Shown here piece after piece: positions 10,998 through 37,893 of a stretch of DNA of 38,224 nt. The stretch's first letter is position 1; each line of letters opens with the position of its first letter. The stretch comes from a virus. Its lineage: Duplodnaviria > Heunggongvirae > Uroviricota > Caudoviricetes. The stretch lies in IMG/VR virus record IMGVR_UViG_2541047899_000010, positions 1 through 38,224 of that record. The stretch is one strand, 5' to 3'. The notes beneath the pieces were generated by a model. That model searched no databases and was not told where the DNA came from. It saw nothing but the letters and a program-made list of their open reading frames with translations. Both the position numbers and the translations under genes were made by a program.

Positions 10998-10999
10998 AA

Positions 11000-12199
11000 T
11001 CAATCCTCAAATAGCATCTCTTCGATTAATGAAACGTCAGGTATTGTAGCAAAACAGTCATTTTTTACTTTATTTAAAAGATTGCGATCATTCTTTTTAT
11101 GATGTGTGGTAGCTTCAACAAAAGTGGTTACACCATCTACTTTTTTAGTAAAAGTATATGAATGCGTAGGCAGATCTAAGCTCAAGATATCATAATTATG
11201 TGTGGTGTATATAAATTGACCATATCTGCAAAGCTTAGATATAATCAGCGTGACCATCATTTTTTCTAATTCAGTATGAGTGAAGGCCATTTTCTCATCC
11301 AAAAAGTACACCCCACTGCAAGGGAAATTGAACTCTCGCTCTTCTATTTTATCTTCAAGCACTCCTGACAGGAGATGGGATATTTTTACTGCCTCATAAG
11401 TACCACGAGACAGTCTATCTTTATTTGTTATATCACCTTCCATATCAATAATAACTCTATCTCCATTATTGAAGACTACTGAATAACCCTGCAAATCCTC
11501 CTTTCCCTCATCATCTTTAAGAGTGAGTCCTGAGACAGATTTAACAGTATTGTCAAAGGTTTTTAATATGCTATTAAGCACATTCTTCTTAATTCGTGAT
11601 ATTTTATCCGTGTTCTCTTGGTTTTCAGATAGAATGAAATGCCAACCAAGAACAAAGTCCAAATCCTCTAAATATTGGGAAAATTCTTTTGAGTTAGCGT
11701 TTTCGGTTGAAAAAAATCTATTTTGACCATTTAATTCAAACTTTTGCGCATCCCACACAGCATCCAATCTTTTGGTCGTCTTTGCGCATGATTCCGAGCT
11801 TCTTAAATCAACAGATGCCATTGCAATTTTTTCTACAGCAACAGACTCATCCATAGCCCTAAGCCAGACACCTGCCCTAAACAAACATTTTAAATGACTC
11901 TGGAAAAAGTCAACCTCTATATATGCAGGTTTTCTTTTGTCAGTAATTTTTAACGGTTCTGGATTGAAAACACCACTACTGAGAAAACGCAACACAGAAA
12001 GCATCACGCGACCAAGAGATGTTTTACCAGATGCATTAGCACCAGAAACGATGCAAACCTTTTTGAAGTAGAACTTTTCAAATCCATCAATGTACTCACC
12101 TTCCAGTGAGCTGTTGATCGGGGGTCTGGAGAAGCTTAAGTCAAGGATGCTATTTTCAAAGCAAAACAGATTATCGATTCTGATTTTTGTAAAAGCCAT
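11000..12199 (-). CDS. ABC-type ATPase (AAA_15/AAA_21-like) of a candidate anti-phage module
   Basis: 399 aa. Walker A GANASGKTS, Walker B VYFLDE, H-loop TTHN, with a long helical insert between A and B as in OLD, AriA and AbiL-type ATPases. AAGGTGG upstream of the ATG. AT-rich. Confidence 0.75.
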   Translation of the reverse strand: MAFTKIRIDNLFCFENSILDLSFSRPPINSSLEGEYIDGFEKFYFKKVCIVSGANASGKTSLGRVMLSVLRFLSSGVFNPEPLKITDKRKPAYIEVDFFQSHLKCLFRAGVWLRAMDESVAVEKIAMASVDLRSSESCAKTTKRLDAVWDAQKFELNGQNRFFSTENANSKEFSQYLEDLDFVLGWHFILSENQENTDKISRIKKNVLNSILKTFDNTVKSVSGLTLKDDEGKEDLQGYSVVFNNGDRVIIDMEGDITNKDRLSRGTYEAVKISHLLSGVLEDKIEEREFNFPCSGVYFLDEKMAFTHTELEKMMVTLIISKLCRYGQFIYTTHNYDILSLDLPTHSYTFTKKVDGVTTFVEATTHHKKNDRNLLNKVKNDCFATIPDVSLIEEMLFED

Positions 12200-15533: not shown

Positions 15534-15687
15534 TGCTCCCCCTGAGTAATTACAGGAAGATTACCCGCGCGCGAAACTGTTCTCCTTAACCCCCTGTTCT
15601 GGCCGTTTTCTTACAACAAAAGCCCTTTGTATCAGCCTGTTACGCTTTGCCATCATGACTGAAGAACCAGTCAGAGGGGCAAAAACT

Positions 15688-19957: not shown

Positions 19958-20361
19958 AGCTCTGGCCCACGCTGGGTGTCGCTTTCCTTCTGATTGCCGC
20001 ATGGGGAACATCCATGCGCCTGTCGTGGTCGCTGGGCCGGGAGAACGCCAGAAACGAAGCGCAGGCCAGCGCCCTGAAAAGTACCGTCGACACCCTGAAT
20101 ATCATCAGCACCGGGGTGCAGGATATGCAGCAGGTGCTGGCGCAACTCCGCGTGGAAAATCAGCAACGCAATCAGGACGGAGAGGCCAGACGTGAACAGC
20201 TACGCAACGATATTGCAAAAGATGAATGCGCCCACGCTTTGCCTGACGCTCGTTTTACTGACAGGTTGCGCAGGCACGCAGAACGCGCCACGGCCAGCGC
20301 CGTCAGTCCGGCTTATACCGCAGACGCTGACCATACCGGTAACGCCTCCCCCCTTCCCTGA
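19954..20361 (+). CDS. lysB: LysB-like inner-membrane spanin
   Basis: Internal ATG at 19954 overlaps the endolysin stop (ATGA). N-terminal TM (MKLWPTLGVAFLLIAAWG) then coiled coil. Confidence 0.6.
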   Translation: MKLWPTLGVAFLLIAAWGTSMRLSWSLGRENARNEAQASALKSTVDTLNIISTGVQDMQQVLAQLRVENQQRNQDGEARREQLRNDIAKDECAHALPDARFTDRLRRHAERATASAVSPAYTADADHTGNASPLP

Positions 20362-23944: not shown

Positions 23945-26095
23945 ATGAGTACCACAACACGTAAATTTAAAACCGTTATCACCGATACGGGTGCCAAAAA
24001 ATTAGCTCAGGCAGCCGCGCCAGATGGTAAGCCTGTCCGCCTGACTCATATGGCCGTGGGCGACGGTGGCGGTACATTGCCCACACCTGACAGTAAGCAG
24101 ACCCGTCTGGTGCATGAGGTGTGGCGACATACTGTTAATCGCGTCATCCTGGACGCAACACATCAGAACCGTATTATTGCAGAGCTGGTTATTCCTCCTG
24201 AAACGGGCGGATTCTGGATCCGGGAAATTGGTGTATTTGATGAGCACGGCGATTTAATCGCGGTGGGCAATACTGCCGAAAGTTACAAGCCAGCCGTTGC
24301 CGAAGGGTCCGGTCGTGCACAAACATTTCGCACCATTCTGACCGTATCCAGCACTGCCACCGTGGCGCTTACCGTGGATAACACCATGGTGATGGCCACA
24401 GTGGATTACGTGGATGACAAACTGAAAGAGCATGAACAGTCACGACGTCACCCGGACGCCTCGCTGACCGCAAAAGGCTTTGTTCAACTCAGTAGCGCTA
24501 CTAACAGCGTGTCTGAAACGCAGGCTGCAACGCCGAAAGCAGTAAAGGCCGCGTATGACCTTGCTAACGGTAAATATACTGCGCAGGATGCCAGCACGAC
24601 GCGAAAAGGCCTTGTCCAGCTCAGTAGCGCCACCAACAGCACGTCTGAAACGCAGGCTGCAACGCCGAAAGCAGTAAAGGCCGCGTATGACCTTGCTAAC
24701 GCAAAATATACCGCTCAGGACGCCACGACGGCACAAAAAGGGATAGTCCAGCTCAGTAGTGCCACCAACAGCACGTCTGAAACACTGGCCGCGACATCGA
24801 AAGCGGTTAAGGCGGTAATGGATGAAACGAACAAGAAAGCGCCCTTAAACAGTCCTGCGCTGACCGGAACGCCAACAACGCCAACTGCGCGACAGGGAAC
24901 GAATAATACCCAAATCGCAAGCACGGCTTTCGTTATGGCTGCGATTGCCGCCCTTGTAGATTCGTCACCTGACGCACTGAATACGCTGAACGAGTTAGCG
25001 GCGGCGCTGGGAAACGACCCGAATTTTGCGACCACCATGACTAACGCGCTTGCGGGTAAGCAACCGAAAGATGCCACCCTGACGGCGCTGGCCGGGCTTG
25101 CTACTGCGGCAGACAGGTTTCCGTATTTTACGGGGAATGATGTCGCCAGCCTGGCAACCCTGACAAAAGTCGGGCGGGATATTCTTGCGAAATCGACCGT
25201 TGCTGCCGTTATCGAATACCTCGGTTTACAAGAAACGGTAAACAGGGCTGGTAACGCCGTGCAAAAAAATGGCGATACTTTGTCCGGTGGGCTTACTTTT
25301 GAAAATGACTCAATCCTTGCCTGGATTCGAAATACTGACTGGGCGAAGATTGGATTTAAAAATGATGCCGATGGTGACACTGATTCATACATGTGGTTTG
25401 AGACAGGCGACAACGGCAATGAATATTTCAAATGGAGAAGCAAACAAAGCACCACAACAAAAGACCTGATGACGCTGAAATGGGATGCACTAAATATTCT
25501 TGTTAATGCCGTCATTAATGGCAGCCTTGGAGTTGGTACGACGAATGCGTTAGGTGGTAGCTCTATTGTTTTTGGTGATAATGATACCGGATTTAAACAG
25601 AATGGAGACGGTATTCTTGATGTTTATGCTAATAGTCAGCGTGTATTCCGCTTTCAGAATGGAGTGGCTATTGCTTTTAAAAATATTCAGGCTGGGGATG
25701 GTAAAAAATTCACGCTATCCAGCTCCAACAACTCCACGAAGAACGTAGGGTTTAATTTATGGGGCGCTTCATCAAGACCAACTGTTGCAGAGCTTGGTGA
25801 TGATTCAGGCTGGCATTTCTATAGTCAGCGAAATACAGATAACTCGGTGATATTTGCTGTAAACGGTCAGATACAACCCAGCAACTGGGGGAATTTTGAT
25901 TCACGCTATGTGAGAGATGTCAGACTTGGCACGCGTGTTGTTCAAACTATGCAAAAAGGCGTGATGTATGAAAAATCAGGCCATGCAATTACGGGGCTTG
26001 GCATTGTCGGCGAAGTTGATGGCGATGATCCGGCTGTGTTCAGACCAATACAAAAATACATCAATGGCACATGGTATAACGTTGCACAGGTATAA
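23945..26095 (+). CDS. H: Tail fibre protein H with constant N-terminal part and invertible C-terminal part (current orientation)
   Basis: 716 aa with three tandem 39-aa phage tail-fibre repeats (QLSSATNSTSETQAATPKAVKAAYDLAN). The crossover site at 25209..25234 lies in frame within the gene (...AAVIEYLGLQE...). Confidence 0.9.
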   Translation: MSTTTRKFKTVITDTGAKKLAQAAAPDGKPVRLTHMAVGDGGGTLPTPDSKQTRLVHEVWRHTVNRVILDATHQNRIIAELVIPPETGGFWIREIGVFDEHGDLIAVGNTAESYKPAVAEGSGRAQTFRTILTVSSTATVALTVDNTMVMATVDYVDDKLKEHEQSRRHPDASLTAKGFVQLSSATNSVSETQAATPKAVKAAYDLANGKYTAQDASTTRKGLVQLSSATNSTSETQAATPKAVKAAYDLANAKYTAQDATTAQKGIVQLSSATNSTSETLAATSKAVKAVMDETNKKAPLNSPALTGTPTTPTARQGTNNTQIASTAFVMAAIAALVDSSPDALNTLNELAAALGNDPNFATTMTNALAGKQPKDATLTALAGLATAADRFPYFTGNDVASLATLTKVGRDILAKSTVAAVIEYLGLQETVNRAGNAVQKNGDTLSGGLTFENDSILAWIRNTDWAKIGFKNDADGDTDSYMWFETGDNGNEYFKWRSKQSTTTKDLMTLKWDALNILVNAVINGSLGVGTTNALGGSSIVFGDNDTGFKQNGDGILDVYANSQRVFRFQNGVAIAFKNIQAGDGKKFTLSSSNNSTKNVGFNLWGASSRPTVAELGDDSGWHFYSQRNTDNSVIFAVNGQIQPSNWGNFDSRYVRDVRLGTRVVQTMQKGVMYEKSGHAITGLGIVGEVDGDDPAVFRPIQKYINGTWYNVAQV
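24464..24820. repeat. Three tandem 117-bp repeats within tail fibre gene H
   Basis: A 55-nt core (gaaacgcaggctgcaacgccgaaagcagtaaaggccgcgtatgaccttgctaacg) recurs exactly at about 24518 and 24648, with a third diverged copy. Confidence 0.8.
25209..25234. other. Left 26-bp gix/hix-like crossover site for the DNA invertase
   Basis: TTATCGAATACCTCGGTTTACAAGAA; inverted match to the site at 27887..27912; resembles the Mu gix sequence (recalled). Confidence 0.8.
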
Positions 26096-26098
26096 ATC

Positions 26099-26626
26099 AT
26101 GCAGCATTTAAAAAACATTACTGCTGGCAATCCTAAAACAAAAGAGCAATATCAGCTAACAAAGAATTTTGATGTTATCTGGTTGTGGTCAGAAGATGGG
26201 AAAAACTGGTACGAGGAATTAAAGAACTTTCAGGAAGACACAATAAAAATTCTTTATGACGAGAATAATATTATTGTCGCCATCACCAAAGATGCCTCCA
26301 CGCTTAACCCTGAAGGCTATAGCGTCGTTGAAGTTCCTGATATTACAGCTAATCGCCGTGCCGATGATTCAGGTAAGTGGATGTTTAAGGACGGGGCTGT
26401 AGTTAAGCGGATTTATACGGCAGACGAACAGCAACAACAGGCCAAATCACAAAAGGCCGCATTACTTTCCGAAGCTGAATCAGTTATCCAGCCACTGGAA
26501 CGCGCTGTCAGGCTGAACATGGCGACGGATGAGGAACGCGCACGACTGGAGTCATGGGAACGCTACAGCGTTCTGGTCAGCCGTGTGGATACAGCAAATC
26601 CCGAATGGCCACAAAAGCCTGAATAA
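26099..26626 (+). CDS. G: Tail fibre assembly chaperone G
   Basis: 175 aa; N-terminus [22 protein letters not shown]; immediately follows H. Confidence 0.85.
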
Positions 26627-26632
26627 AAATTA

Positions 26633-26651
26633 AGGCCCGATAGCGGGCCTT
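26633..26651. terminator. Hairpin between convergent G and G'
   Basis: aggcccg-atag-cgggcct stem-loop; the T-run is on the minus-strand side. Confidence 0.4.
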
Positions 26652-26654
26652 GTC

Positions 26655-27188
26655 TCATTCAGGTTGTTTGGGAAATGTTACTGGCAGGCTGGAGGTGTCT
26701 GTGGATTCGACTTTCTGCGCGTAGAGCATCCACTCTGTTAATTTTTGTTTATTCTCGTCGGAAATGATACCCAGCCGTAGCTGTGAGTCCCATAGCTGGG
26801 TTTTATCCCTGACGAGCTGTAGCAAGCTTTGCTTTTCATTTTCCGCTTGTTGCCTCTGCTCTTCCTCGGTATAAGTTCGCTTTACCACTACGCCATCTTT
26901 GAACATCCATTTACCCGAAATATCAGCCCGGCGATTTGCTGTAATATCAGGTAATTCAACGACGCTTGCGCCTTCTGGATTAATTGCTGAAACATCCTTT
27001 TCAATACAAATAATAACGCCGTTATGGTCATAGACCATTTTCAACGTATCAGACTGGAAATTCTTTTGTTCCTCATACCAGTTTTTTCCATCCTCTGTAT
27101 AAAGCCATTTGATGTTAAATTGCTTTGTTAGCTGATATTGCTCTTTTGTTTTAGGATTGCCAGCAGTAATGTTTTTTAAGTGCATCAT
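26655..27188 (-). CDS. Alternative tail fibre assembly chaperone G' (expressed after inversion)
   Basis: 177 aa; N-terminus [22 protein letters not shown] is near-identical to G for about 22 residues, then diverges. Confidence 0.8.
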   Translation of the reverse strand: MMHLKNITAGNPKTKEQYQLTKQFNIKWLYTEDGKNWYEEQKNFQSDTLKMVYDHNGVIICIEKDVSAINPEGASVVELPDITANRRADISGKWMFKDGVVVKRTYTEEEQRQQAENEKQSLLQLVRDKTQLWDSQLRLGIISDENKQKLTEWMLYAQKVESTDTSSLPVTFPKQPE

Positions 27189-27190
27189 CG

Positions 27191-27904
27191 TTAAATACTC
27201 CCCGCGTTATACCACGTCCCATTAATGCAATACTGAATTGGCCTTGCCTGAGTTGTATCAATTAATTCGTCACGGTTTCCGTTAACTGAACCTGTAACGA
27301 CATAACCTGACTTATCAGACCAACCAGGCCCATTCCATGTTTGAACAGATGACAGTCCTCCTAAACGGACACCTGTAATAAATCGTGAATTACATTCCGC
27401 TTTAGTATATGCACCAACATCTCCTGCTGAAGGTTTTCTGGTGGTGGTGTAAAATTCGGACCAGTCGGCTTCAAAACCATAACCATCACGGGCTGAACGA
27501 TAAAAAATACCGCCATTTTTATAATTAATCCGAAACTGAGCTGCAGGACAACTTCCTTCTCCCATATAAAAATGAATAATTAACGTTGATGCACCACTAA
27601 TAGTTGCGTTATAGGCTCCGCTACTCCAGTTCCATCCAACTGCTTTATCATTCGCAACGGTGCTTCCTGTTTTCCCTAAGGCAAACGCACCAACATGACT
27701 TGCTTTTAATGTGATATCGGAGGAACCATCAAAAGCCACATTGCTTATTTTCCTGGCAGTTTTTAATTTTGCAGCTGTAGAAGCATTGCCGGATAGTTCA
27801 CCAGAAAGGCCACCGCTGAATGTTTGTCGATTAGTCCAGGTATTCGCTGTACTGAGTAACGGTATTTTCTCCCCGCTTGTGCCGAGTTCTCGTAAACCGA
27901 GGTT
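27191..27904 (-). CDS. Alternative tail fibre C-terminal segment Hv' (promoterless, fuses to the H constant part after inversion)
   Basis: The frame is open from 27904 and continuous with the H frame through the crossover site (predicted junction ...IEYLGLRELGTSGEK...). No start codon of its own. The 5' boundary is approximate. Confidence 0.7.
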   Translation of the reverse strand, partial: NLGLRELGTSGEKIPLLSTANTWTNRQTFSGGLSGELSGNASTAAKLKTARKISNVAFDGSSDITLKASHVGAFALGKTGSTVANDKAVGWNWSSGAYNATISGASTLIIHFYMGEGSCPAAQFRINYKNGGIFYRSARDGYGFEADWSEFYTTTRKPSAGDVGAYTKAECNSRFITGVRLGGLSSVQTWNGPGWSDKSGYVVTGSVNGNRDELIDTTQARPIQYCINGTWYNAGSI

Positions 27905-27912
27905 TTAGATAA
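27887..27912. other. Right 26-bp gix/hix-like crossover site
   Basis: TTCTCGTAAACCGAGGTTTTAGATAA; its reverse complement matches the left site at 21 of 26 positions. Confidence 0.8.
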
Positions 27913-27966
27913 TGGCCGTTTCTGACCTGCATGGCATGATTTACGCTTTTGGACGGGAGATTCAGC

Positions 27967-28554
27967 GTGCTGATTGGCTATGTAAGGGTATCAACAAATG
28001 ACCAGAATACAGACCTGCAACGAAACGCTCTTGTTTGTGCAGGATGTGAACAAATATTTGAAGATAAATTAAGCGGGACAAAGACAGACCGACCGGGATT
28101 AAAACGCGCTTTAAAGCGCCTTCAAAAAGGTGACACGCTGGTTGTCTGGAAACTGGATCGCCTCGGGCGAAGCATGAAACATCTGATTTCTCTCGTCGGG
28201 GAACTACGGGAGCGAGGGATTAATTTTCGCAGTCTGACCGACAGCATAGATACATCTTCTCCAATGGGGCGTTTTTTCTTCCACGTGATGGGTGCCCTGG
28301 CTGAAATGGAACGTGAATTAATTGTTGAACGTACACTGGCCGGACTGGCGGCAGCGCGTGCACGGGGGCGCACAGGCGGACGTCGACCGAAGCTGACAAA
28401 AGAACAGCATGAGCAAATAGCAAGGCTGATCAAAAACGGGCACGACAGAAAACAACTGGCAATAATTTACGGCATTGGTATATCGACGATTTATCGTTAC
28501 CACCCCGCAGGAGAATCAAGCGGAACAATAGAGAAGAGTCAGGAAACAAAATAA
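27967..28554 (+). CDS. Serine DNA invertase (Gin/Hin/Cin/Pin family)
   Basis: GTG start giving (M)LIGYVRVSTNDQNTDLQRNAL with the catalytic Ser in the canonical position; C-terminal HTH (GISTIYRY). About 195 aa. Adjacent to the right crossover site. Confidence 0.9.
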   Translation: MLIGYVRVSTNDQNTDLQRNALVCAGCEQIFEDKLSGTKTDRPGLKRALKRLQKGDTLVVWKLDRLGRSMKHLISLVGELRERGINFRSLTDSIDTSSPMGRFFFHVMGALAEMERELIVERTLAGLAAARARGRTGGRRPKLTKEQHEQIARLIKNGHDRKQLAIIYGIGISTIYRYHPAGESSGTIEKSQETK

Positions 28555-28585
28555 CCGCTAATCTGACCATTAGCGGTTTTTGTGT
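28554..28585 (+). terminator. Intrinsic terminator after the invertase gene
   Basis: accgctaat-ctgacc-attagcggt hairpin followed by ttttgtgtt. Confidence 0.6.
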
Positions 28586-28589
28586 TAAA

Positions 28590-29078
28590 TCAGAACAGCC
28601 CTTTAACTGAACTGGCCGCGCTGTTAAGAGATGATGTCACCTTATCTTTGAAGCCGGACAGCATATCGCTGAACGATGAGGATTGCAGGCGCTCCCGCAA
28701 ATCCTCATCACAGCGTTCAAGGGTCAGTGAAAATTCTATCTTTTTCGCCTTACCGTAGCGATCAAACTCGGAACGGGTCGTATTCGTTTCAGTCAGCACA
28801 TACATGCCGTAAATCTGCCCGACACCATCAATCAGAGGCCAGGGGCGTCCTGTATATGCCTGCGTGGTCAGCAACGAAAGCGACACTTCGCCACCTGTAA
28901 TTTCAGGATAAAGCACGCCAGAAAGCACAATGCGATCATCACCTGCACCGATATACTGCCAGCTTGCTGAGCGGTTAACGCGTTCATTTTTCACATGCCG
29001 CCAGCTTTTGTTTTGCTGTAACTGCTGATGCGGCAATGTGCGCAGCTCAAAAACAAACATGCCGTAGATCATCATCAT
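28590..29078 (-). CDS. U: Tail protein U (P2 gpU-like)
   Basis: From M3 (MMMIYGMFVFELRTLP...) recalled as matching the P2 U N-terminus (MMMVLGLFVF..); GAGGAG 8 nt upstream of this ATG. Confidence 0.8.
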   Translation of the reverse strand: MMMIYGMFVFELRTLPHQQLQQNKSWRHVKNERVNRSASWQYIGAGDDRIVLSGVLYPEITGGEVSLSLLTTQAYTGRPWPLIDGVGQIYGMYVLTETNTTRSEFDRYGKAKKIEFSLTLERCDEDLRERLQSSSFSDMLSGFKDKVTSSLNSAASSVKGLF

Positions 29079-29090
29079 GGCCATGACTCC

Positions 29091-31907
29091 TCAATCTTTA
29101 TCGTAAAAACTGCCACGTCCGGCACGGGCGCGCCGTTCCATCTCTGCCCTGACCATTTCACCGACCAGTTTCGCCAGTTCGCGGGGATTCTGCGTAACAA
29201 CGTTATGCAGATGGACATGAATTTCACCACCAAATCCGGAGGCAACAGGCTCCCGGTTACGGGAAGTTACAGGAACTGATGCCACTGGCGATCGTATGGC
29301 CTCCGCCACCGGGCGGGAGCTGGCCGCAACAACAGGGACCAGCGCCGGAGGCAGCGGAGCCGGGACCACGGGGGTGATATTAATTGCGGGGGCAGGCTTA
29401 CTGACCTGCGCAATCTTCCGCTCCTGCCACTCCCCACGAACAGCAAGTGCGCGGGGCAGGTTCTTAAAGACAATATCGCCGGGGCCAATGCGTTTTTTCG
29501 TCTCATCAACCAGCTTACCTGTGTTATCAGCAATTTTGCTGAGTCTGCGTAGCGTCCCGGTATTGCTGTCTGTGAGCGGTTTGTTGTCTTTGGGTTTATC
29601 ACCTCCGGTGCCATTGCCATTTTCCACAGGCTTCGGCGGATTGATTTTCGCCAGGTCCCCCTGAAGCAAGGCAACCTTGTCCTGAAGAATGGCCGCACGC
29701 TGTGCGTCTTCGATTTTCTTGCGCGCCCTTTCCGCTTCATCCGGAAGGACGCCAAGTTTTTCAAGTATCCACGCCAGCGTATCCAGTAGCATTTTTGCAG
29801 GTGTCAGAACAAGTTGTAACGCACCGCCAAGAACGTTACCGAATATCTCGCCAGCACTGGTACATTTATCCAGCGTTTCCTTGCTGGACTCCATCGGTGA
29901 CAGCAGCGATTTAAACCAGTTAAACACCAGGCTGATCCCGCTTCCGATTGCGTCAAAAACAGGACCAAACCGTTCAAAGGTTTCGCGCAACGGGGTCAGC
30001 CTTTCCATAATCCCGCTGAACACCCCGGCAAAAAATGCCCTGATGGGATCCCAGTATTTCCAGATAAGAACGGCAGCTCCGGCAAGCGCAGCCACGATAA
30101 GACCAACCGGACTGAACAGCGCCCCGATAGCGCCTCCCAGTAAAGAAACGGAACCCGTCACCATTCCCCACAGCGCAGGCAACACCCTGACGACATTCAT
30201 TGACCGGGTAAGAATGTCAAAACCAAGACGCAGGGTGGCCAGCTTCCCGTAAAGCACCCCAATAACCAGCGACAACGAGCCAATCGTTGCAGTCATTGCC
30301 AGCAACGCACCGCCTGCTATCAGTAGCTGGCGCGTCAGCACCGGATGGGCCTGCGCCAGCGAGGTGATTTTTTCAAGCACCCGCGTGAGCCACTGCGTGA
30401 CAGAACGCAGCGGACCGTCAACCAGATCACTGATGCGAATACGAAGACCTTCCCATGCGCTGTCGAGATTTTTCAGGTCCCCATCAAGATTATCGGCCAT
30501 TACTTTTGCGACGCGATCGGCCTCTCCCCTTGCCCCCTGCAATTCTCTGGTCAGTTTTTGCAGCTCTCCTGAACCAGCCGCCGCAACAAGCGTCTGCAAA
30601 CCAACGAACGCCTCTTCTCCGGCGATGTCCTTGAAGAAGGAAACCTGGTCCACCTGTCCGTATTTTTGTGTCGCCTTATAGAGATCAAGCAGCACATCCT
30701 CCATCGGGCGCATTTTGCCTCTGGCGTCAGCAACTGACACTCCCAGCTCTTTCAGCGCATCAGCCGCAGCTTTTGGCGGTGATGCAAGGCGGGACAGACT
30801 TGCGCGCATGGCCGTACCAGCATCGCTTCCGCGAAGACCATTATTGGCAAGCATCCCGGCCATGGCTGCCGCTTCTTCAAGACTGATACCAAGTTTTGCG
30901 GCAACCGGACCGGTATACTTCATGGTTTCGCCCAGCGCGCGTAAATCAGTATTGGTCCGGGTGAATGCCGCTGTCAGCGTATCGCCAACCCGGTCCATTT
31001 GATCGGCTGTCAGGTTGAACTGTGTGAGGATATTGGAGCCTATATCAGCCGTCTCGCCGAGTTCGACGCCACCTGCCAGCGCCATATTAAGAACACCGGG
31101 CAATGCGGCCTGAATGGCCTGCGGAGTAAAACCAGCCATTGCCAGAAAGCTCTGCCCACTGGCGGCATCACTCGCAGTAAACTGTGTTTCAGAGCCAAGT
31201 TTTAACGCCTGCTCACGCAGCGCCTTAAACTGCGGGCTGTTTTTGTCGATTCGCGTCAGTGCCTGAACGCGGGACATCTCTTTGCCGAACCCGATCGCAG
31301 GCTGCAAAAAACGCCCGGCAGCATAGCCGCCCGCCGCTGCCGCACCAATTGCCAGTGCACCACCTGTTTTCAGTTTTCCCGCTGTTTCCTGCGCGCGCGA
31401 ATACCGCTCACGCGCCCGCGTTACACGCGCAAGCGCCTGCCGTTCGCGTTCAAGCTGGTTGTTGTACTGTTCGGTGCGTCTGATGGCCTGCTGGATGGTG
31501 TTATCGCTGCCTGTCAGGGAAATGCCGTGGCGTTTCAGCTCTCCGCCAAGCTCCCGCATTTTTTGAATTTCCCGTGTGCGCGATTCATTCAGGCGTTCAA
31601 GCCGGGTGCTTAACTGCTGCATCAGCTTTTGTTGTTTTTCGCTGAGCACTGTACCCGTGCGTTGTAACTGATTAAGGGCGTTAAGCTGGCGTCGTGCTTT
31701 CACGATGCCCGCATCCGCTTTACTGACAGCGTCACGGGCGCGCTCAAATGAACGCGCCTGACGCTCGAGATTTTTGATCGCCCCCTGCGTTCGCTGGATG
31801 GAGTCACCAAACTGCCCCATCAGGCGGCGGGCGTTTTCGGCAGGCCGGGTCAGCCTGTCAACGGCGCTGAAAGCGACCCGGATATCAAGAGTCTTCATTA
31901 TCTGCAT
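29091..31907 (-). CDS. T: Tail tape measure protein (P2 gpT-like)
   Basis: 938 aa, coiled-coil-rich N-terminal third and Gly/Ala-rich hydrophobic stretches typical of tape measure proteins. An ATG at 31898 is an alternative start. Confidence 0.85.
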   Translation of the reverse strand: MQIMKTLDIRVAFSAVDRLTRPAENARRLMGQFGDSIQRTQGAIKNLERQARSFERARDAVSKADAGIVKARRQLNALNQLQRTGTVLSEKQQKLMQQLSTRLERLNESRTREIQKMRELGGELKRHGISLTGSDNTIQQAIRRTEQYNNQLERERQALARVTRARERYSRAQETAGKLKTGGALAIGAAAAGGYAAGRFLQPAIGFGKEMSRVQALTRIDKNSPQFKALREQALKLGSETQFTASDAASGQSFLAMAGFTPQAIQAALPGVLNMALAGGVELGETADIGSNILTQFNLTADQMDRVGDTLTAAFTRTNTDLRALGETMKYTGPVAAKLGISLEEAAAMAGMLANNGLRGSDAGTAMRASLSRLASPPKAAADALKELGVSVADARGKMRPMEDVLLDLYKATQKYGQVDQVSFFKDIAGEEAFVGLQTLVAAAGSGELQKLTRELQGARGEADRVAKVMADNLDGDLKNLDSAWEGLRIRISDLVDGPLRSVTQWLTRVLEKITSLAQAHPVLTRQLLIAGGALLAMTATIGSLSLVIGVLYGKLATLRLGFDILTRSMNVVRVLPALWGMVTGSVSLLGGAIGALFSPVGLIVAALAGAAVLIWKYWDPIRAFFAGVFSGIMERLTPLRETFERFGPVFDAIGSGISLVFNWFKSLLSPMESSKETLDKCTSAGEIFGNVLGGALQLVLTPAKMLLDTLAWILEKLGVLPDEAERARKKIEDAQRAAILQDKVALLQGDLAKINPPKPVENGNGTGGDKPKDNKPLTDSNTGTLRRLSKIADNTGKLVDETKKRIGPGDIVFKNLPRALAVRGEWQERKIAQVSKPAPAINITPVVPAPLPPALVPVVAASSRPVAEAIRSPVASVPVTSRNREPVASGFGGEIHVHLHNVVTQNPRELAKLVGEMVRAEMERRARAGRGSFYDKD

Positions 31908-32423
31908 TCCCGCTGCGAAGTGCCGCCCGCTCGCGCCAGCTAACCACTTCGCCGGGCGTCATCATGAAGATTTCGGCGGGCGACCAGTTAAAAATGGCGG
32001 CAATATCCGCCACCAGATCTTCGATGTGCTCAAAGCACACCAGGGTGATTACGCTGCCGTCTCCTGCACGCTCTTCGCGCCAGAGTCTGGCTCGCTCATA
32101 AAATTTACAGCCACAGCGCACAACTGAATAAAATCGCGTGACGACATTTTTTTAATCATCACTTCATCCAGTCGTGGCGAGGTCACGCGAGGCAACAGCG
32201 TAAACATGGTATCCGCTTTCAGATTCAGCACATCAGACAGCGACAGACCACGCAGGGATCCAGCCTGCTCAATAGCCCCGGTGATCTCCACATACGTGAT
32301 TTTTTCGCCACCACGCTCAATTGGTCGGGTCAGTTTTACGCCACGTTCGACAGCCATATCCTCACCTGCCGTCACATCATCCGCCACGGTGTTATTCCGG
32401 GTTTCAGTATCGATGTCTTTCAT
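31885..32423 (-). CDS. Tail assembly chaperone E+E' produced by programmed -1 frameshift
   Basis: The E' frame (ORF 31885..32121) is -1 relative to E and open from 32151. An A7 run at 32147..32153 (ATT AAA AAA ATG) is the candidate slip site. The P2 E/E' precedent is recalled. Confidence 0.6.
32049..32423 (-). CDS. E: Tail assembly chaperone E (P2 gpE-like)
   Basis: 124 aa; AAGGAG 8 nt upstream of the ATG at 32423; sits between FII and T. Confidence 0.75.
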   Translation of the reverse strand: MKDIDTETRNNTVADDVTAGEDMAVERGVKLTRPIERGGEKITYVEITGAIEQAGSLRGLSLSDVLNLKADTMFTLLPRVTSPRLDEVMIKKMSSRDFIQLCAVAVNFMSEPDSGAKSVQETAA

Positions 32424-32478
32424 CAGTTGTCTCCTTTTCAGTCAGAGGCGACGCACTGCGCCGCCTGCATATTACTTA

Positions 32479-32991
32479 TCAGCCAAGCCCAAGCGCGGAA
32501 CGGATACGGTCAGGCACAATGTCCTTGCCGTCCTTCCGGTAGATGTGGTTCAACAGGTCGATTTCCCACAGCGGGCGATCGTTAACGCTCAGCTTGTAGT
32601 AGGTGTTTTTGACAGCGTAAGTGTGTGATGTGGCTTCGCCCTGTTTGGCTTCCCCCATATCAATTTCCGTCACACGCCCGCGCATCTCGATTTCATACAG
32701 ATCGCTTTCTGCATCGGTGTAGTATTCACCCGCAAAACGCAGCAGCGTGCCGTCAATCGTGCCGCCATATTTAAGGAACAGCGCACGAACAGCTCCCCCC
32801 ATAACAAAACTCGCATCAAGCGCGGAGTCGTCCAGACCGAGATCAATACTTACCGCCCCCATCATGCCACCACCACGATAGCTGTCGGTTTTGCGCGTCA
32901 GTTTGGGCGGCGTGACGGACGTCACCTTACCCACTTCGTTTTCACCATCCACAAACAGCGTAAAAAAGCGAAGATGTTTTGGTACAGCCAT
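32479..32991 (-). CDS. FII: Tail tube protein FII
   Basis: 170 aa (P2 FII is about 172); start overlaps the FI stop. Confidence 0.85.
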   Translation of the reverse strand: MAVPKHLRFFTLFVDGENEVGKVTSVTPPKLTRKTDSYRGGGMMGAVSIDLGLDDSALDASFVMGGAVRALFLKYGGTIDGTLLRFAGEYYTDAESDLYEIEMRGRVTEIDMGEAKQGEATSHTYAVKNTYYKLSVNDRPLWEIDLLNHIYRKDGKDIVPDRIRSALGLG

Positions 32992-34175
32992 CAGGCACCT
33001 CCCAGCACCGCAAATGCGGGACCAAAGAATTCATCAGTAAACGACTGGTAAAGCTCCATGTCTTCCAGCGGAGGAACGGGCGTATATTTGTAGCGAATAC
33101 GCACACGCCCCTGACGTAAATTCGTGGTGCTGTTATCCACGATGTCATACCAGCACTCCGCGCCAATCAGTTTCCCGGCAGTAACCAGTGAATCCAGTTT
33201 TGCCCTGATGGCACTGATAACATCCTTCACGTTCGCAGGCGTCAGTGGACTGTCGATGGTTTCAAACTGCGCTTCCGCAATTGAATCAGCCAGCACCTGT
33301 GCGGTTCGGGTATACACCTCAAAGATGTAGGCGTTCGTTTCCGGTGTGCGGTTGCCCCAGAAGCGGAACCCGTTGCGACGAATAATGGTCGTGATTTCTT
33401 TGTTGTTGAGGCTGTTGGCATCGCTGTCTTCGGCCTGCAACGACCAGAACACATGCCTGGACATCCCCAGCACATTTTTAACCGGAACGTTGGACAGTGA
33501 TTTGTGCCATCCCTGCTCATGGTCAATGTACGCACGAAGGCCGCACGCATAGGCAGGCGCGGGGAACGTTTCGTTTTTGCCACTTTTCGGGTTGTAGGCG
33601 ATGAAGTCCGGCCATAAGAGCATCACCTCACGTTCATTGAATTTCTGGCGGTAGGTAATCGCCTCAGCCATCGTGTTACAGCCGTGACATGAGGCATACA
33701 CAAACGCGCGCAGTTTACCCGCAATCACGCACAGGGATTTTGTTACCGCCTCCGTGTCCAGCTCCGGCGCGGCCAGAATACGCGGACGGTATCCGATGCT
33801 TTCATCCTGCTCTGCAACAAGCAGCGCATACATCCCCGTATAGCTGCCGTCAGATTCAGAACCACCGATAACCAGTTGATCCTGCGTTTTTCCGTCTTCT
33901 TCTTTGTGTTCAGCCACGCGAACGACGATCACCTTTGTGCTCACCTGGTCTGCGATGGCCTTAAGCGCACGATAAAGCGTCCCCGTTGTTCCGCATTTTC
34001 CCAGCACGTCATTGACGCGGGTCAGCAGTGTGGGCTTGTTCAGCGGGAACAGCTCCGCGTCCGCAGCATCCGCCGTTGCCACGATACCGATAACACTGGA
34101 ATCAACATCATTAATCGCTGTTACCAGGTCGGTACTTTCCGTAACACGGGCACCATGAAAACGAGTTTCACTCAT
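32991..34175 (-). CDS. FI: Contractile tail sheath protein FI
   Basis: 394 aa (P2 FI is about 396); sheath-like sequence (...FRFWGNRTPETNAYIFEVYTRTAQ...). Confidence 0.9.
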   Translation of the reverse strand: MSETRFHGARVTESTDLVTAINDVDSSVIGIVATADAADAELFPLNKPTLLTRVNDVLGKCGTTGTLYRALKAIADQVSTKVIVVRVAEHKEEDGKTQDQLVIGGSESDGSYTGMYALLVAEQDESIGYRPRILAAPELDTEAVTKSLCVIAGKLRAFVYASCHGCNTMAEAITYRQKFNEREVMLLWPDFIAYNPKSGKNETFPAPAYACGLRAYIDHEQGWHKSLSNVPVKNVLGMSRHVFWSLQAEDSDANSLNNKEITTIIRRNGFRFWGNRTPETNAYIFEVYTRTAQVLADSIAEAQFETIDSPLTPANVKDVISAIRAKLDSLVTAGKLIGAECWYDIVDNSTTNLRQGRVRIRYKYTPVPPLEDMELYQSFTDEFFGPAFAVLGGA

Positions 34176-34332
34176 AGCTTCAGCCCCTTGTATCCGTTAA
34201 ATGATTCGGCAACAATCATCACCCACCACGCGCGTAATCTCACCCCTGCGCCGTTCTCCCGACCCGGCGACAACAAAAAGCAGTAACCCCCTCCGCACGC
34301 ACATGCGACCATGCCGCACAGGGAGGGAACAG

Positions 34333-35442
34333 ATGACCGATACCACCATGCAATTGCTCAGTCAGGGCACAGACCCCGTGAAAATGCCGGATTTTGATAT
34401 TCTCGCGGAGGGTAAAACGCTGTCAGGCGTGGCAGAGCGCCTGATGAGCCTGTCACTGACCGACAACCGGGGATTTGAGGCGGACCAGCTCACCATCACG
34501 CTGGATGATGCGGATGGTCAGTTGCAGCTACCGCCACGGGGCGCGCGCCTGACGGTTCTCATTGGCTGGAAAGGAGAACCGCTGACAGAAAAAGGCACTT
34601 ACATTGTTGATGAAATCGCTCACGAAGGACCGCCGGACAGGCTGACTGTTTCAGCCAGAAGCGCAGATTTTCGGGATGAATTTAACGTTAAACGTGAGGT
34701 GTCCTGGCATGATGTGACCGTTGAGCGTGTGGTATCCGCCATCGCTCATCGGTATGGTCTGAAACCGCAAATCAGCGAAATGCTGATGGATATCGAAATC
34801 GACCACGCCGACCAGACCGAAGAAAGCGACATGTCCTTTCTTACGCGCATGGCGGAAATGCTGGGCGCAATCACCACGGTAAAAAGCGGTAATCTGTTAT
34901 TCATTATGCCAGGCGGTGGCGTGAACGCACAGGGCCAGCCGTTGCCATCGTTCGCCATTACACGCAGCAGCGGCGATCGCCATCAGTTCCGCATTGCTGA
35001 CCGCGAGGCGTATACGGGTGTACGCGCCTACTGGCTTGATCTTAATTACGGGAAAAAGAAAAAAGTCAGCGTGAAACGCCGCAAACCGCCAAAACCCAAA
35101 AAGGAGAAAAGCAGTAGCCGTGAAGGTGATTATATGGAAGGCGCGGAAGGCAATGTGTTTGTGTTACGCAAGACTTATCAGAACGAGCAGGCAGCAAGAC
35201 GCGCAGCGGCGGCAAAGTGGCAGCAGCTACAACGCGGAGCCGCATCATTCTCCATCATGCTGGCACGTGGACGCGCAGAACTCTACCCCGAAATGCATGG
35301 CACGGTAACAGGATTTAAAAGCGAGATTGATAATCAGGACTGGATTATTGCGAAAGCCGAGCACACCATTGATAACAGCGGCTTTACCACGCAGCTTGAG
35401 CTTGAAGCAAAAATCCCGGAATGGATAGCAGAAACAGAGTGA
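34333..35442 (+). CDS. D: Tail protein D (P2 gpD-like)
   Basis: ATG at 34333 preceded by GGGAGGGAA; 369 aa; position before ogr. The upstream part of the long ORF from 34201 is unsupported. Confidence 0.8.
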   Translation: MTDTTMQLLSQGTDPVKMPDFDILAEGKTLSGVAERLMSLSLTDNRGFEADQLTITLDDADGQLQLPPRGARLTVLIGWKGEPLTEKGTYIVDEIAHEGPPDRLTVSARSADFRDEFNVKREVSWHDVTVERVVSAIAHRYGLKPQISEMLMDIEIDHADQTEESDMSFLTRMAEMLGAITTVKSGNLLFIMPGGGVNAQGQPLPSFAITRSSGDRHQFRIADREAYTGVRAYWLDLNYGKKKKVSVKRRKPPKPKKEKSSSREGDYMEGAEGNVFVLRKTYQNEQAARRAAAAKWQQLQRGAASFSIMLARGRAELYPEMHGTVTGFKSEIDNQDWIIAKAEHTIDNSGFTTQLELEAKIPEWIAETE

Positions 35443-35791
35443 GCAACTTGGATGCATTAGCTCAGACCAAAGCTGGCACGCTTACGACGCAGAACCAAAC
35501 CTAATCTGACAGTCCGCTTTGTACCAGAAGCAGACATTAATAACATTATTTGCAATAACCAATTGATATTGTTTTTATTGCGTGTTATTAAAGCATATCC
35601 ACTTGTGGTCATTACCAACTACTCGTCTATTTTTATTTGTGAACAAAATCAGATTTTAGCTAGAAACATTTTGTGAAAAAAATAGCGAAATTTTTGTAGG
35701 AAGTAAGTCAAGCAGATATAGCAGCAGATCGGAAGTTATTGGTCATGCGTTATTTACTCTAAGCAAAAAAACTTAGTACAGGAAAAAATAA

Positions 35792-37375
35792 ATGGCAAGT
35801 AAAGCTAACCTTGTTAATTTGGATGCGATGATTTCAAGAGAGGATTTCTCTGCTCAATCCGATAATGATTTATCTTTCGAATCTATACAAAATATAGCTA
35901 TGAGAGATATCGGAATGTTGTCTGGCCTACTCAGAAAACCAGATTTTCAGAGAGAAACAAATCACTGGACTCCAGAGCAAGTAGTTTCATTACTAAAGAG
36001 TTTTGTCACAGGTGATTTAATACCATCCGTGATTTTATGGAAGAGTTCTTTTGTGTTTGTTATAGACGGTGGTCATAGACTTAGTGTTTTAAGAGCATGG
36101 AAAGAAAATGACTATGGTGATGGCACTATATCGCAAAAATTCTTTGGAAATAGTATTTCCGGAGAGCAAAGAAAGATCGCACAAAAAACAAGAGAATTGG
36201 TTGACTCCACAGTTGGTAAATGGTCTGAGATAGAAAGAAAAATGCAGGATTCTAATAATGACCATGATGAGAGTAGAAGGCTTACAAATATTTACGTAAG
36301 GGCTTTGCAAGTCCAGTGGGTTAAAGGTGATTCCGATAAGGCAGAAACGTCTTTTTTCAATATAAATAAAAAAGGTACTCCTTTAGATGAGGTTGAGGAA
36401 ACTTTACTTAGGCATAGGAAGAAACCTATATCTATCGCTGCGAGAGCAATAATACGAGCAGGAAAAGGACATAGATACTGGTCCTCTTTCCCTGAGGATA
36501 AGACTAAAAAGATAGAAGAGCTTTCCTCAAATATAAACTCCTCTCTTTTCGATCCAGACGTTAAATCTCAAATTAAAACACTCGATCTACCTCTGGGTGG
36601 CTCACGCGGTGTGAGGTTAGCTCTTGATATCTTAATAGATCTTATGTCTATTTCCGTGTCCCAGAGCGAAAATTATCAAAAAGAATTGCTTAATCAAATC
36701 GAAGATTCAGATGGAAGCGAAACTGTTGTTGTTCTGGAAAAAACCGCAAAATTACTAAATTGGATTACTGGAAATGACAAGGGCAGCTTAGGATTACATC
36801 CGGCCGTGTATTTTTATAGTGCATCAGGCAGACATGTGAATCCTATGTTTTTAGGGACGACTCTGTTTATAGCGAAAAAATTAAAATTTAATGATAAGAA
36901 CTTCTTCAAAAAATTCACAAGTATTAGGTTTAATTTAGAGAAAACTCTAATAAACAATAAGTCTATGCTAGCATCGTTAGTGAACAGAGCAGGACATAAG
37001 AAAAGAACTGAGTATTACTCTAATTTATTTGAGTCAATGATTGATTTCCTTCTTGAGGTAAAAAAGAAAGACAAAAGCATGAGTGATTTCAGCCTTACAG
37101 AAAGTGAAATACTCCAGCTTGCTCACTTTGAAGGTAATATCCTATCTGGGACAAGTATCAGCAATGCAACTAAAATTAGTGAGGAAGCGAAGAATGCTGT
37201 ATTCATTGATACTGCATTAGCTTCAGCAATTACATGTCCTATCTGCCAGGGATATTTAGATCCTTCAAAATCTGTCTCATATGATCACATCAAAAGAGTT
37301 GCAGATGGTGGTAAAGGTTCGGCAAAAAATACTCAGTTAACTCACCCGTATTGCAATATGTCTGTCAAAAATTAG
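35792..37375 (+). CDS. GmrSD/DUF262-DUF1524-like protein: N-terminal ParB-like NTPase domain fused to C-terminal HNH nuclease (candidate type IV restriction or defence enzyme)
   Basis: 527 aa in an AT-rich island. N-terminal DUF262 hallmarks (PDFQRE...W then VIDGGHR, equivalent to the DGQQR motif). C-terminal His-Me finger (CPICQGY...DHIKRVADGG...NTQLTHPYCN). Confidence 0.7.
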   Translation: MASKANLVNLDAMISREDFSAQSDNDLSFESIQNIAMRDIGMLSGLLRKPDFQRETNHWTPEQVVSLLKSFVTGDLIPSVILWKSSFVFVIDGGHRLSVLRAWKENDYGDGTISQKFFGNSISGEQRKIAQKTRELVDSTVGKWSEIERKMQDSNNDHDESRRLTNIYVRALQVQWVKGDSDKAETSFFNINKKGTPLDEVEETLLRHRKKPISIAARAIIRAGKGHRYWSSFPEDKTKKIEELSSNINSSLFDPDVKSQIKTLDLPLGGSRGVRLALDILIDLMSISVSQSENYQKELLNQIEDSDGSETVVVLEKTAKLLNWITGNDKGSLGLHPAVYFYSASGRHVNPMFLGTTLFIAKKLKFNDKNFFKKFTSIRFNLEKTLINNKSMLASLVNRAGHKKRTEYYSNLFESMIDFLLEVKKKDKSMSDFSLTESEILQLAHFEGNILSGTSISNATKISEEAKNAVFIDTALASAITCPICQGYLDPSKSVSYDHIKRVADGGKGSAKNTQLTHPYCNMSVKN

Positions 37376-37405
37376 CAATGAGTTAACAATTTTATATCAG
37401 ATAAC

Positions 37406-37430
37406 AGCCTTCTATAATTGAAGGCTTTTC
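37406..37430 (+). terminator. Intrinsic terminator after the GmrSD-like gene
   Basis: agccttc-tataatt-gaaggct hairpin followed by tttc. Confidence 0.5.
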
Positions 37431-37632
37431 GTATGATGCTTTCTTCAATAGAAATGTTGAGTATGATGGAAGATCTCTAATAGTGAATGGTTCGGTTAGG
37501 CCAGATACCTACCACTCTACACAAAACTTTGTGTCCGATCCTCGCTCACAGCAGTCGCTCCCAAGGGTTTCAGTTGGAGTCTGAGCTAGTACAACTTAGA
37601 ATAGCGGCAGCACCACGTTAAGGGAGGTCGCT

Positions 37633-37893
37633 ATGTTCCGTTGTCCGCTTTGTGGCGCATCTGCCCGTATCCGCACCAGTCGTCCGGAAAATGATTCAAA
37701 CACCGTGCGGCAAAAGTATTACCAGTGTAACAATCTGGAATGCGGCGTATGCTTCTCAACACTGGAAGCTTTCCATAAATTCACATCAAAACACGCCTCC
37801 GGCGTTCACTCTTCAGAAGGTATCCCGTGGCATGAGCTGCCAGCTTCACACAGGGGAAACAATCAGATGAGCTTGCCTTTACCTCAGAATTAA
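37633..37893 (+). CDS. ogr: Ogr/Delta-family zinc-finger late-gene transcription activator
   Basis: MFRCPLCGASARIRTSR...YYQCNNLECGVCF recalled as matching P2 Ogr (MFHCPLCQHAAHARTSR...YHQCQNVNCSATF), with four Cys in the same spacing. GGGAGG upstream. Confidence 0.85.
   Translation: MFRCPLCGASARIRTSRPENDSNTVRQKYYQCNNLECGVCFSTLEAFHKFTSKHASGVHSSEGIPWHELPASHRGNNQMSLPLPQN

Follow-up and report, generated by a model that had tools for sequence, protein, structure and literature searches.

The tail block of this element, in which the genes from U to the sheath gene FI lie on the minus strand, is an ordinary, fixed and inherited layout and not a recent rearrangement. Taken as a whole, the stretch of 38,224 nt that we analysed (hereafter the window) is very probably best explained as a P88-like prophage that carries the inverted block standard for its clade, produced by one old inversion of about 5.7 kb, with putative shared-box control of FI and D.

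The minus-strand tail block and its surroundings

The prophage in the window is of the P88-like type (Xuanwuvirus, Peduoviridae), and its closest match is an E. coli O145:H28 chromosome, 99.9% identical. Positions 26000-36000 are colinear with P88, P884B11, phiSM, 500465-2 and others at 92-96% nucleotide identity, and positions 1100-26000 are 78-80% covered at about 95% identity. Phages are placed in one genus by the ICTV when they share at least about 70% nucleotide identity over the genome length. Coverage times identity against P88 was about 0.78 x 0.96 (1100-26000) and 0.92 x 0.93 (26000-36000), figures that are computed on two overlapping stretches and are not a formal whole-genome value, and which place the window in Xuanwuvirus. 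The contractile tail gene set of the Peduoviridae is present, with FI, FII, T, gpU and gpD clustered and with Pfam matches above the curated cut-offs (PF04984/PF17482, PF04985, PF10145, PF06995 and PF05954). The genes of the block and those that follow it are listed below.

28590-29084, minus: gpU-like tail protein U (PF06995, 5.5e-39), last gene of the leftward tail operon
29091-31907, minus: tape measure protein T (PF10145, 1.6e-56)
31885-32423, minus: predicted E+E' -1 frameshift product of 179 aa, ending at about 31885, at the T start (sequence-based prediction)
32049-32423, minus: tail assembly chaperone E (weak PF10109 match, below the curated cut-off)
32479-32991, minus: tail tube protein FII (PF04985, 2.1e-45)
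32991-34175, minus: tail sheath protein FI (PF04984, PF22671, PF17482), first gene of the leftward operon
34176-34332, no strand: divergent control region between FI and D, 157 bp
34333-35442, plus: gpD, late control D / baseplate hub (PF05954), 99% identical to D of P88 and phiSM
37633-37893, plus: ogr, Ogr/Delta-type zinc-finger late activator (PF04606, 5.1e-14), 99-100% identical to ogr of P88 and phiSM

An earlier note on this DNA had placed U, T, E/E', FII and FI on the minus strand and H, G, D and ogr on the plus strand; this assignment is borne out by the ORF layout and the profile matches, and the FI-D gap has the coordinates given there. The match of E to PF10109 scored 20.6 against a cut-off of 25 bits. 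The heptamer AAATTTT (X_XXY_YYZ) at 32100-32106 in E is a candidate -1 frameshift signal, and in the P88 annotation the E and E' pieces are entered separately. The D ORF opens at 34201; the start at 34333 is the one that agrees with the P88 annotation, and a Shine-Dalgarno sequence, GGGAGGG, precedes it at 34322-34328.

The P2 F operon contains the same genes in the same internal order, and P2 and the window both have an Ogr-type zinc-finger activator, with proteins that are only 33-49% identical; the window may also resemble P2 in a candidate E/E' frameshift. In P2, FI-FII-E-T-U-D form one unit that is co-directional with V-W-J-I-H-G and in which the D start overlaps the U stop. The window lacks this organisation: U (minus) and D (plus) are 5.2 kb apart and not adjacent, the inverted segment runs from pF to U, and D forms a divergent unit of its own.

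To the left, the block abuts an invertible tail-fibre segment of 2.7 kb, bounded by two crossover sites, and its invertase gene.

23945-26095, plus: tail fibre gene H (tblastn and ORF layout; matches the P88 'tail fiber protein')
25205-25234, no strand: left crossover site TTATCGAATACCTCGGTTTACAAGAA, a 30-nt inverted repeat, 87% complementary to 27887-27916 and 16/18 against the consensus
26099-26626, plus: tail fibre assembly gene G (ORF; 95-96% identical to G of P88 and phiSM)
26655-27188, minus: alternative G', inside the invertible segment (PF02413/PF12604 across the G'+H' region)
27191-27739, minus: alternative H' C-terminal fragment, inside the invertible segment (same profile matches)
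27887-27916, no strand: right crossover site TTCTCGTAAACCGAGGTTTTAGATAA, inverted repeat, 18/18 against the invertase-site consensus
27949-28554, plus: Gin/Cin/Pin-type serine DNA invertase (PF00239, 1.5e-50; PF02796), outside the inverted tail block
28545-28586, no strand: hairpin with T-runs on both strands, inverted repeat 89% complementary, -13.2 kcal/mol, downstream of U

H ends the rightward row of baseplate and fibre genes and extends with its 3' part into the invertible segment; G and G' form a 357-nt inverted repeat. The invertase and U genes converge on the hairpin, which is predicted to act as an intrinsic terminator in both directions. The leftward operon would stop at this two-way terminator, which would also close the convergent fibre and invertase transcription. 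A terminator-like hairpin after U that fitted our criteria was found in only 21 of 62 clade members, and a clade-wide conserved terminator was dropped on this count.

Spread of the inverted layout

The earlier note was unsure whether the arrangement is unusual for the wider family, and held that related phages commonly sharing the orientation would make it typical of a lineage. Our synteny comparison gave this second outcome. The same strands are annotated in P88, phiSM, SEN5 and Klebsiella phages of two further genera, and the layout is the norm for Xuanwuvirus and for at least three more Peduoviridae genera, namely Senquatrovirus, Reginaelenavirus and Reipivirus. From J to D, the genes of Escherichia phage P88 (Xuanwuvirus), P884B11 and Citrobacter phage phiSM have the order and strands of those in the window, at 92-96% nucleotide identity; the shared features include the minus-strand block, the invertase with its invertible fibre segment, the 157-bp gap and the box described below. 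They differ in what has been added: about 45 nt lie between D and ogr in P88 and phiSM, whereas in the window a low-GC insert of 2.2 kb, encoding a DUF262/GmrSD_N+HNH protein, separates the two genes, and the cargo beside the portal gene differs as well. Salmonella phage SEN5 (Senquatrovirus) and the Reginaelenavirus/Reipivirus Klebsiella phages resemble the window in the inverted U-T-E-FII-FI block, the divergent D-ogr and the box distances, with a D that is only 63-72% identical; SEN5 has no invertase beside U, and none was detected beside U in the two Klebsiella phages.

The same colinear layout was present in 1344 of 5426 complete E. coli genomes, about a quarter, when at least 80% of 27900-35500 was required in one colinear piece, and a joined P2-type U-D junction was found in none of 1414 E. 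coli genomes. These counts leave next to no probability for the 5.7-kb block being an actively invertible segment or an assembly artefact. A case of this kind might be seen in the metagenome-derived contig L079, which is rearranged, T being split and the invertase present twice, but this scrambled contig is the one exception among the scorable ones of 80 close viral contigs, all others having an identical orientation.

The boundary of the layout was sought across Enterobacterales in the best 80 loci by match to the D of the window, a sample beyond which intermediate or exceptional layouts are possible. All 65 classifiable loci with a D at least 61% identical to that of the window, a number that includes the window and five phage reference loci, had the inverted block, and all 16 classifiable loci with a D at most 53% identical had the P2 order. 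Pairwise identity alone was dropped as a separator of the two layouts, as the minimum within the inverted group (0.58) lies below the maximum between groups (0.60). As identity did not separate them cleanly, we used tree monophyly instead: the inverted loci were monophyletic in NJ trees of both D and FI, with stem lengths of 0.19 and 0.29, in trees made from tblastn segments, without bootstrap support and rooted on P2, which assumes the polarity.

Origin and polarity of the inversion

Compared with P2 and Fels-2, exactly the segment pF-FI-FII-E/E'-T-U is inverted, with its left junction within the hairpin at 28545-28586 and its right junction within 34275-34332. The idea of an ancestral inversion next to the invertase locus, put forward in the earlier note, thus holds for the inverted segment but not for a link with the invertase, which lies outside the block and is missing beside U in most clade members. 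We propose that one old inversion of about 5.7 kb would have flipped the F-operon promoter together with FI to U. Its cut would lie between U and D, two genes that overlap in P2, with D and ogr left behind. The invertase beside the block would be variable cargo in the slot between G and FI/U, with nothing linking it to the event. Since the inverted loci form one clade, and this clade includes genera free of the invertase, such as that of SEN5, the data point to one old inversion with no detectable invertase link.

Salmonella phage Fels-2 (Felsduovirus) is informative in this respect. Like the window, it combines an invertible H/G segment with a Gin/Cin-type invertase (74% identical) between the fibre and sheath genes; unlike the window, it has the P2 order, with the invertase, FI to U, D and ogr all on one strand. 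This layout may be what the immediate precursor looked like. The Fels-2 order H G G' H' inv FI...U D would also be a plausible precursor if the adjacent Gin/Cin-type invertase had itself made the inversion by means of secondary (quasi) crossover sites at the U and FI-D ends. Recombination at secondary sites is known for Cin of P1, and in the window, as in P88 and phiSM, the block lies directly beside the invertase gene. We nevertheless consider this origin very unlikely. Neither junction carries a crossover-like sequence: in a scan for degenerate invertase sites both scored 10-11/18, which is background, while the genuine sites at 25209 and 27887 scored 16 and 18, in agreement with the earlier observation that there is no hix-like site at the other end. 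The 5.7-kb block therefore lacks the inverted 26-bp crossover sites at both ends that define a Gin/Hin-type segment, and none of the top pairs of short inverted repeats flanking the block fell at the junctions. Moreover, an inversion from the real site at 27887-27916 would have turned the invertase gene as well, and that gene lies outside the block; most clade members, including the whole SEN5 genus, have no invertase beside U; the orientation is constant among the 1414 E. coli genomes; and Fels-2, L149 and L163 keep the P2 order with an invertase in the same G-FI slot.

One old inversion with no detectable link to the invertase, the reading that we prefer, also presupposes a direction. Orientation alone is symmetric and trees rooted on P2 presuppose the polarity, and the divergent FI/D layout could on these grounds be ancestral, with the colinear order of P2, 186 and Fels-2 derived. 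We regard this as most improbable, given that U and D are adjacent on the same strand in distant Burkholderia, Ralstonia, Acidovorax, Xanthomonas, Mannheimia and Pseudomonas phages (beta- and gammaproteobacteria), and that the inverted layout was seen in one Enterobacterales clade only. Among phage records, 387 of 521 had U and D adjacent on one strand.

In the literature on P88, Xuanwuvirus, Peduoviridae and FETUD, and in the phiSM paper, we found no discussion of this inversion. In a paper on a Xenorhabdus tailocin (PMC13280938), the sheath gene and a fragment of a tail-fibre gene flank a variable region; we rejected this tailocin, xnp1, as an inverted example, reading the placement given there as the P2 order.

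Proposed late control from the FI-D gap and its implications

As D has no upstream gene on its own strand, it needs a promoter of its own, which supports what the earlier note had deduced from the divergent arrangement. The gap in which such a promoter would lie measures 140-179 nt across the clade (median 153), and in the window it contains one candidate site.

34253-34274, no strand: Ogr-type box GTTCTCCCGACCCGGCGACAAC, GTTCT-N12-ACAAC (TCT-N12-ACA), one base off TGT-N12-ACA, predicted activator site

No obvious TGT-N12-ACA box had been noticed in the gap before. There is indeed no exact match, but this one-mismatch version is present and is perfect in relatives: the homologous position holds GTTGT-N12-ACAAC in 13 of 55 unique relatives, with the spacing conserved. 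An exact TGT-N12-ACA was found neither in the FI-D gap nor in the P-O gap, so its absence from the former says nothing. The exact GTTCT-N12-ACAAC occurs at three places only in the window, namely the P-O gap, the FI-D gap and gene T (29813-29834, minus).

The box would sit at the pF position. Its distances to the start codons of FI and D are 77 and 58 nt in the window, with medians of 71 and 58 nt in the 55 unique relatives, and the P2 pF box is 71 nt from the FI ATG, so that a box about 71-77 nt upstream of FI is common to P2 and the window. Conserved -10-like blocks are found about 29-32 nt from the box on each side; on the D side the block, CGCGCGCG-TGAAA, is about 29 nt away and similar to the P2 pF -10, and the window's own version (GACCAT region) is weaker than that of its relatives.

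From this geometry, a single dyad-symmetric box between divergent genes at P2 late-promoter distances on both sides, we infer that one shared Ogr-type box drives FI and D in both directions. The box would activate two promoters, one leftward for FI-U with a predicted start near 34208, the other rightward for D with a predicted start near 34319 and hence a predicted D leader of only about 14 nt. The rightward transcript would extend from D through ogr in those relatives in which ogr comes immediately after D. The model is a comparative-sequence one throughout.

P2 offers a precedent, in which one annotated activator site serves both pP and pO, with transcription starting 45 nt beyond each box edge. 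The two regions are alike in having one dyad box and two divergent late genes with starts 56-84 nt from the box edge (box-to-gene distances of 67 and 84 nt for pP/pO, and 77 and 58 nt for FI-D). They differ in that the P2 site is experimentally annotated and belongs to packaging and head genes, and the FI-D site is predicted from sequence and belongs to tail genes.

Alternatively, the box may serve FI only, D being transcribed from a separate promoter, either constitutive or with another activator site, which we judge rather unlikely. Use by FI alone would account for the box, as the clade median distance to FI equals that of P2 pF exactly, and the weak D-side -10-like block of the window would fit as well. 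A sigma-70 consensus scan of 27800-35600 gave fewer promoter-like sites than shuffled sequence and no good one on the plus strand of the gap, a result that speaks for this alternative and is also what is expected of activator-dependent promoters. Against it, the spacing from box to D is as tightly conserved as that to FI (median 58 nt, 25th-75th percentile 57-67) down to 61% D identity, the D-side block resembles the P2 pF -10, P2 already has one site for two divergent late promoters, and a median gap of 153 nt leaves scant room for a second site.

With the shared box as the preferred reading for the gap, it is conceivable, though we hold this only tentatively, that the old inversion rewired late regulation clade-wide, with one Ogr box firing both ways and a short Ogr-activated D-ogr unit uncoupled from the tail operon. 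If so, the D-ogr unit would be a direct positive feedback on the activator, in the window additionally split by the inserted GmrSD-like gene.

In conclusion, the practical value of the finding is mainly negative: the layout is normal in a clade that about one in four complete E. coli genomes carries, so annotators of P2-like prophages should not mark it as a rearrangement. The orientation of the genes from sheath to U relative to D is a clean binary marker of two Enterobacterales P2-like groups, with no exception in our survey. The FI-D gap itself may add to pP/pO of P2 a second, compact and naturally occurring case in which a single Ogr-type site is positioned to serve two divergent late promoters.

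Layout of the tail block in the window and in its close relatives

The window holds an almost complete P2-like prophage with an integrase at one end and an Ogr-type gene at the other, and all of its components are of the P2 family.

Main genes and sites of the prophage
1121-2263, minus strand, integrase
23945-26095, plus strand, H
26099-26626, plus strand, G
after G, genes on the minus strand, invertible segment carrying G' and an H' fragment
25205-25234 and 27887-27916, crossover sites bounding the invertible segment
27949-28554, plus strand, Gin/Cin-type invertase
28590-29084, minus strand, U
29091-31907, minus strand, T
31885-32423, minus strand, E/E'
32479-32991, minus strand, FII
32991-34175, minus strand, FI
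start 34333 (reading frame open from 34201), plus strand, D
37633-37893, plus strand, Ogr-type gene (ogr)

The earlier note had described these identities and strands correctly, with H, G and D on the plus strand and U, T, E/E', FII and FI on the minus strand. The D start at 34333 fits the annotation of Escherichia phage P88 and has a Shine-Dalgarno sequence, so the FI-D gap spans 34176-34332, as had been claimed. Compared with the P2 F operon, the one feature missing here is the co-directional linkage of U and D. D and ogr do share the plus strand, but they are not adjacent, since a low-GC insert of 2.2 kb (35443-37632, GC 36-42%) intervenes. The product of its gene (35792-37375, plus strand) has 527 aa, a GmrSD_N/DUF262 domain and, at the C-terminus, an HNH motif, and the insert is likely anti-phage cargo; in P88 and Citrobacter phage phiSM it is absent and ogr directly follows D. 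Elsewhere in the prophage, an AbiL-like gene pair (10479-12199, minus strand) lies next to the portal gene, where P2 has old/tin, in an island of 35% GC, and encodes a 399-aa AAA_15 ATPase (PADLOC AbiLi, 3e-27) together with an AbiLii-like OLD-type TOPRIM protein of 174 aa. A ParM/StbA actin-like segregation protein (9073-10032, plus strand; PF06406, 1.8e-82), encoded just past replication gene A, hints at a plasmid-like partition function.

Region 26000-36000 is colinear and 92-96% identical in P88, Xuanwuvirus P884B11, phiSM, 500465-2, 520873, 503458, PhiR44_2 and Chuche, and the strands annotated in P88 and phiSM are those of the window. The remainder of the prophage is also P88-like (78-80% coverage, about 95% identity). 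Among 5426 complete E. coli genomes, 1344 carry at least 80% of 27900-35500 in one colinear piece, the closest being an O145:H28 chromosome (99.9% identical). In E. coli O157:H7 (matches H64-H68), the tail block is broken by IS30 and IS1203/IS3-family elements, and these copies are likely defective. Using a hypothetical P2-type junction, in which the 3' end of U was fused to the 5' end of D, we found the joined form in none of the 1414 E. coli genomes holding both halves of the query, showing that the orientation of the block is fixed and not switching.

Reach of the inverted layout across Enterobacterales

We searched 50,697 phage records with a chimeric U+D protein query; of the 521 matching records, 387 have U and D as neighbours on one strand, including distant phages of Burkholderia, Ralstonia, Acidovorax, Xanthomonas, Mannheimia and Pseudomonas. 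Matches to D alone revealed the inverted block in three more genera, Reginaelenavirus and Reipivirus (Klebsiella phages) and Senquatrovirus (Salmonella phage SEN5). Publicly available annotated genomes show the layout in at least four genera of Peduoviridae. We then scanned one genome per species by D-protein alignment, kept the best 80 loci for the window's D across Enterobacterales, and scored synteny by tblastn; the tallies add the window and phage reference loci and leave out seven loci whose short length prevented classification. Where D is at least 61% identical to that of the window, the layout is inverted in all 65 classifiable loci (U, T, E, FII and FI on minus, then D on plus), with ogr following on plus in every case except one locus (L119); where D is at most 53% identical, P2 order was found (16/16). 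The genera in which inverted loci were found are Escherichia, Salmonella, Citrobacter, Enterobacter, Klebsiella, Kosakonia, Pantoea, Erwinia, Brenneria, Pectobacterium, Symbiopectobacterium, Serratia, Edwardsiella, Yersinia, Hafnia, Providencia, Morganella, Xenorhabdus and Photorhabdus.

The earlier note had taken the arrangement to be possibly unusual unless related phages commonly shared it, and this is what the synteny comparison found: the inverted block is ordinary and typical of its lineage. In neighbour-joining trees of D and FI, the inverted loci form one clade (stem lengths 0.19 and 0.29, respectively) with no P2-order sequence within. Because the colinear order is common to distant outgroups, the simplest reading is that the clade's ancestor underwent a single inversion. 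Our literature search found no paper commenting on the layout.

Locus L079 (IMGVR_UViG_2654587728_000014, 433-7585) has a tape measure gene broken at about residue 446, and some 2.5 kb are flanked by two invertase copies in opposite orientations, with the C-terminal piece of U/T mirrored, reflecting either recombination of two related prophages or misassembly. L089 (NZ_JBQPOM010000071.1, 'Vagococcus sp. WN89Y') is an enterobacterial prophage region with a 98% identical D on a contig assigned to Gram-positive Vagococcus, probably an assembly contamination.

Boundaries of the flip and the adjacent invertase

Comparison with P2 and Fels-2 shows that the flipped segment consists of the F-operon promoter and the genes from FI to U. 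Since the stop of U and the start of D overlap in P2, the cut fell exactly between these two genes, and D then gained a ribosome-binding site of its own. On the right, the junction falls between the end of an Ogr-type box (34274) and the D start; on the left, it falls within the 35 bp separating the invertase stop from the U stop. Fels-2, with H G G' H' invertase FI...U D ogr all on one strand, offers a plausible precursor-like layout.

The ancestral inversion and the separate D promoter proposed in the earlier note are both reasonable, but the suggested tie to the neighbouring invertase is not supported. The enzyme sits outside the flipped block, and both junctions match only 10-11 of 18 consensus positions of the crossover site, compared with 16 and 18 for the true sites, in agreement with the earlier note, which had seen no hix-like site at the end away from the invertase locus; about 200 positions in the window score 10/18. 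Moreover, U is adjoined by G or other cargo in most clade members, SEN5 has no invertase anywhere in the corresponding region, and P2-order phages hold invertases in the same slot between G and the sheath gene. This G-to-sheath/U junction is a variable cargo site, occupied in P2 by fun(Z).

At the end of the leftward operon, a hairpin with T-runs on both strands (28553-28578) should stop the convergent transcription of the invertase gene as well. Only 21 of the 62 relatives have a hairpin after U that satisfies our criteria, and we therefore do not generalise the terminator to the clade.

A predicted shared late promoter between FI and D

P2 late promoters use a TGT-N12-ACA-type Ogr-binding box (PMC3931495). 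The exact motif is absent from the FI-D and P-O gaps of the window alike. The earlier note had seen no obvious Ogr box in the FI-D gap, but an Ogr-type box is present there: GTTCT-N12-ACAAC (that is, TCT-N12-ACA) occurs in both gaps, at 34253-34274 (FI-D) and 15596-15617 (P-O). The only other exact match in the window is at 29813-29834, on the minus strand inside gene T. The single P-O box is separated by 62 nt from the ATG of P (15533), and its position favours the second ATG at 15689, with GAGGGG just before it, as the start of O instead of 15655. A further site, GTTCTCCCGGCCCAGCGACCAC at 20025-20046 (minus strand), is identical to the FI-D box at 19 of 22 positions, spacer included; it falls within the lysis genes, with no gene start at the usual 56-77 nt, and is perhaps a third late-promoter site, perhaps a copy that arose by chance or by duplication.

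Across 55 unique FI-D gaps of the clade (140-179 nt long), GTTGT-N12-ACAAC at the box position is perfect in 13, and 33 more keep 8 or 9 of the 10 half-site bases. The median distance from the box is 58 nt to the D ATG and 71 nt to the FI ATG, the latter as in P2 pF, whose box (GTTGT-N12-CCAAC) is also 71 nt away from the ATG of FI and whose mapped start is 46-48 nt past the box. This spacing argues that, in the window, the box is the pF activator site and moved together with the inverted block.

The geometry of the gap copies the P2 pP/pO arrangement, in which, according to the annotation, one activator-binding site serves both divergent promoters and transcription starts 45 nt beyond each box edge. 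Box-anchored alignment also revealed conserved -10-like blocks on both sides of the box, at a distance of about 29-32 nt: GATTAT on the FI strand in the clade (GATGAT in the window) and CGCGCGCG-TGAAA on the D side, comparable to TGAAAAT of P2 pF. From the geometry and these blocks together, we infer that one shared box drives both the FI-U and the D promoters. The predicted starts are near 34208 leftward and near 34319 rightward, the latter giving a 14-nt leader carrying GGGAGGG.

This predicted shared bidirectional late promoter would be the only mildly new element of the layout. In most clade members ogr lies within about 50 nt after D; where it directly trails D, the rightward unit would be D-ogr and, if this unit is real, a positive feedback loop on the late activator Ogr is possible.
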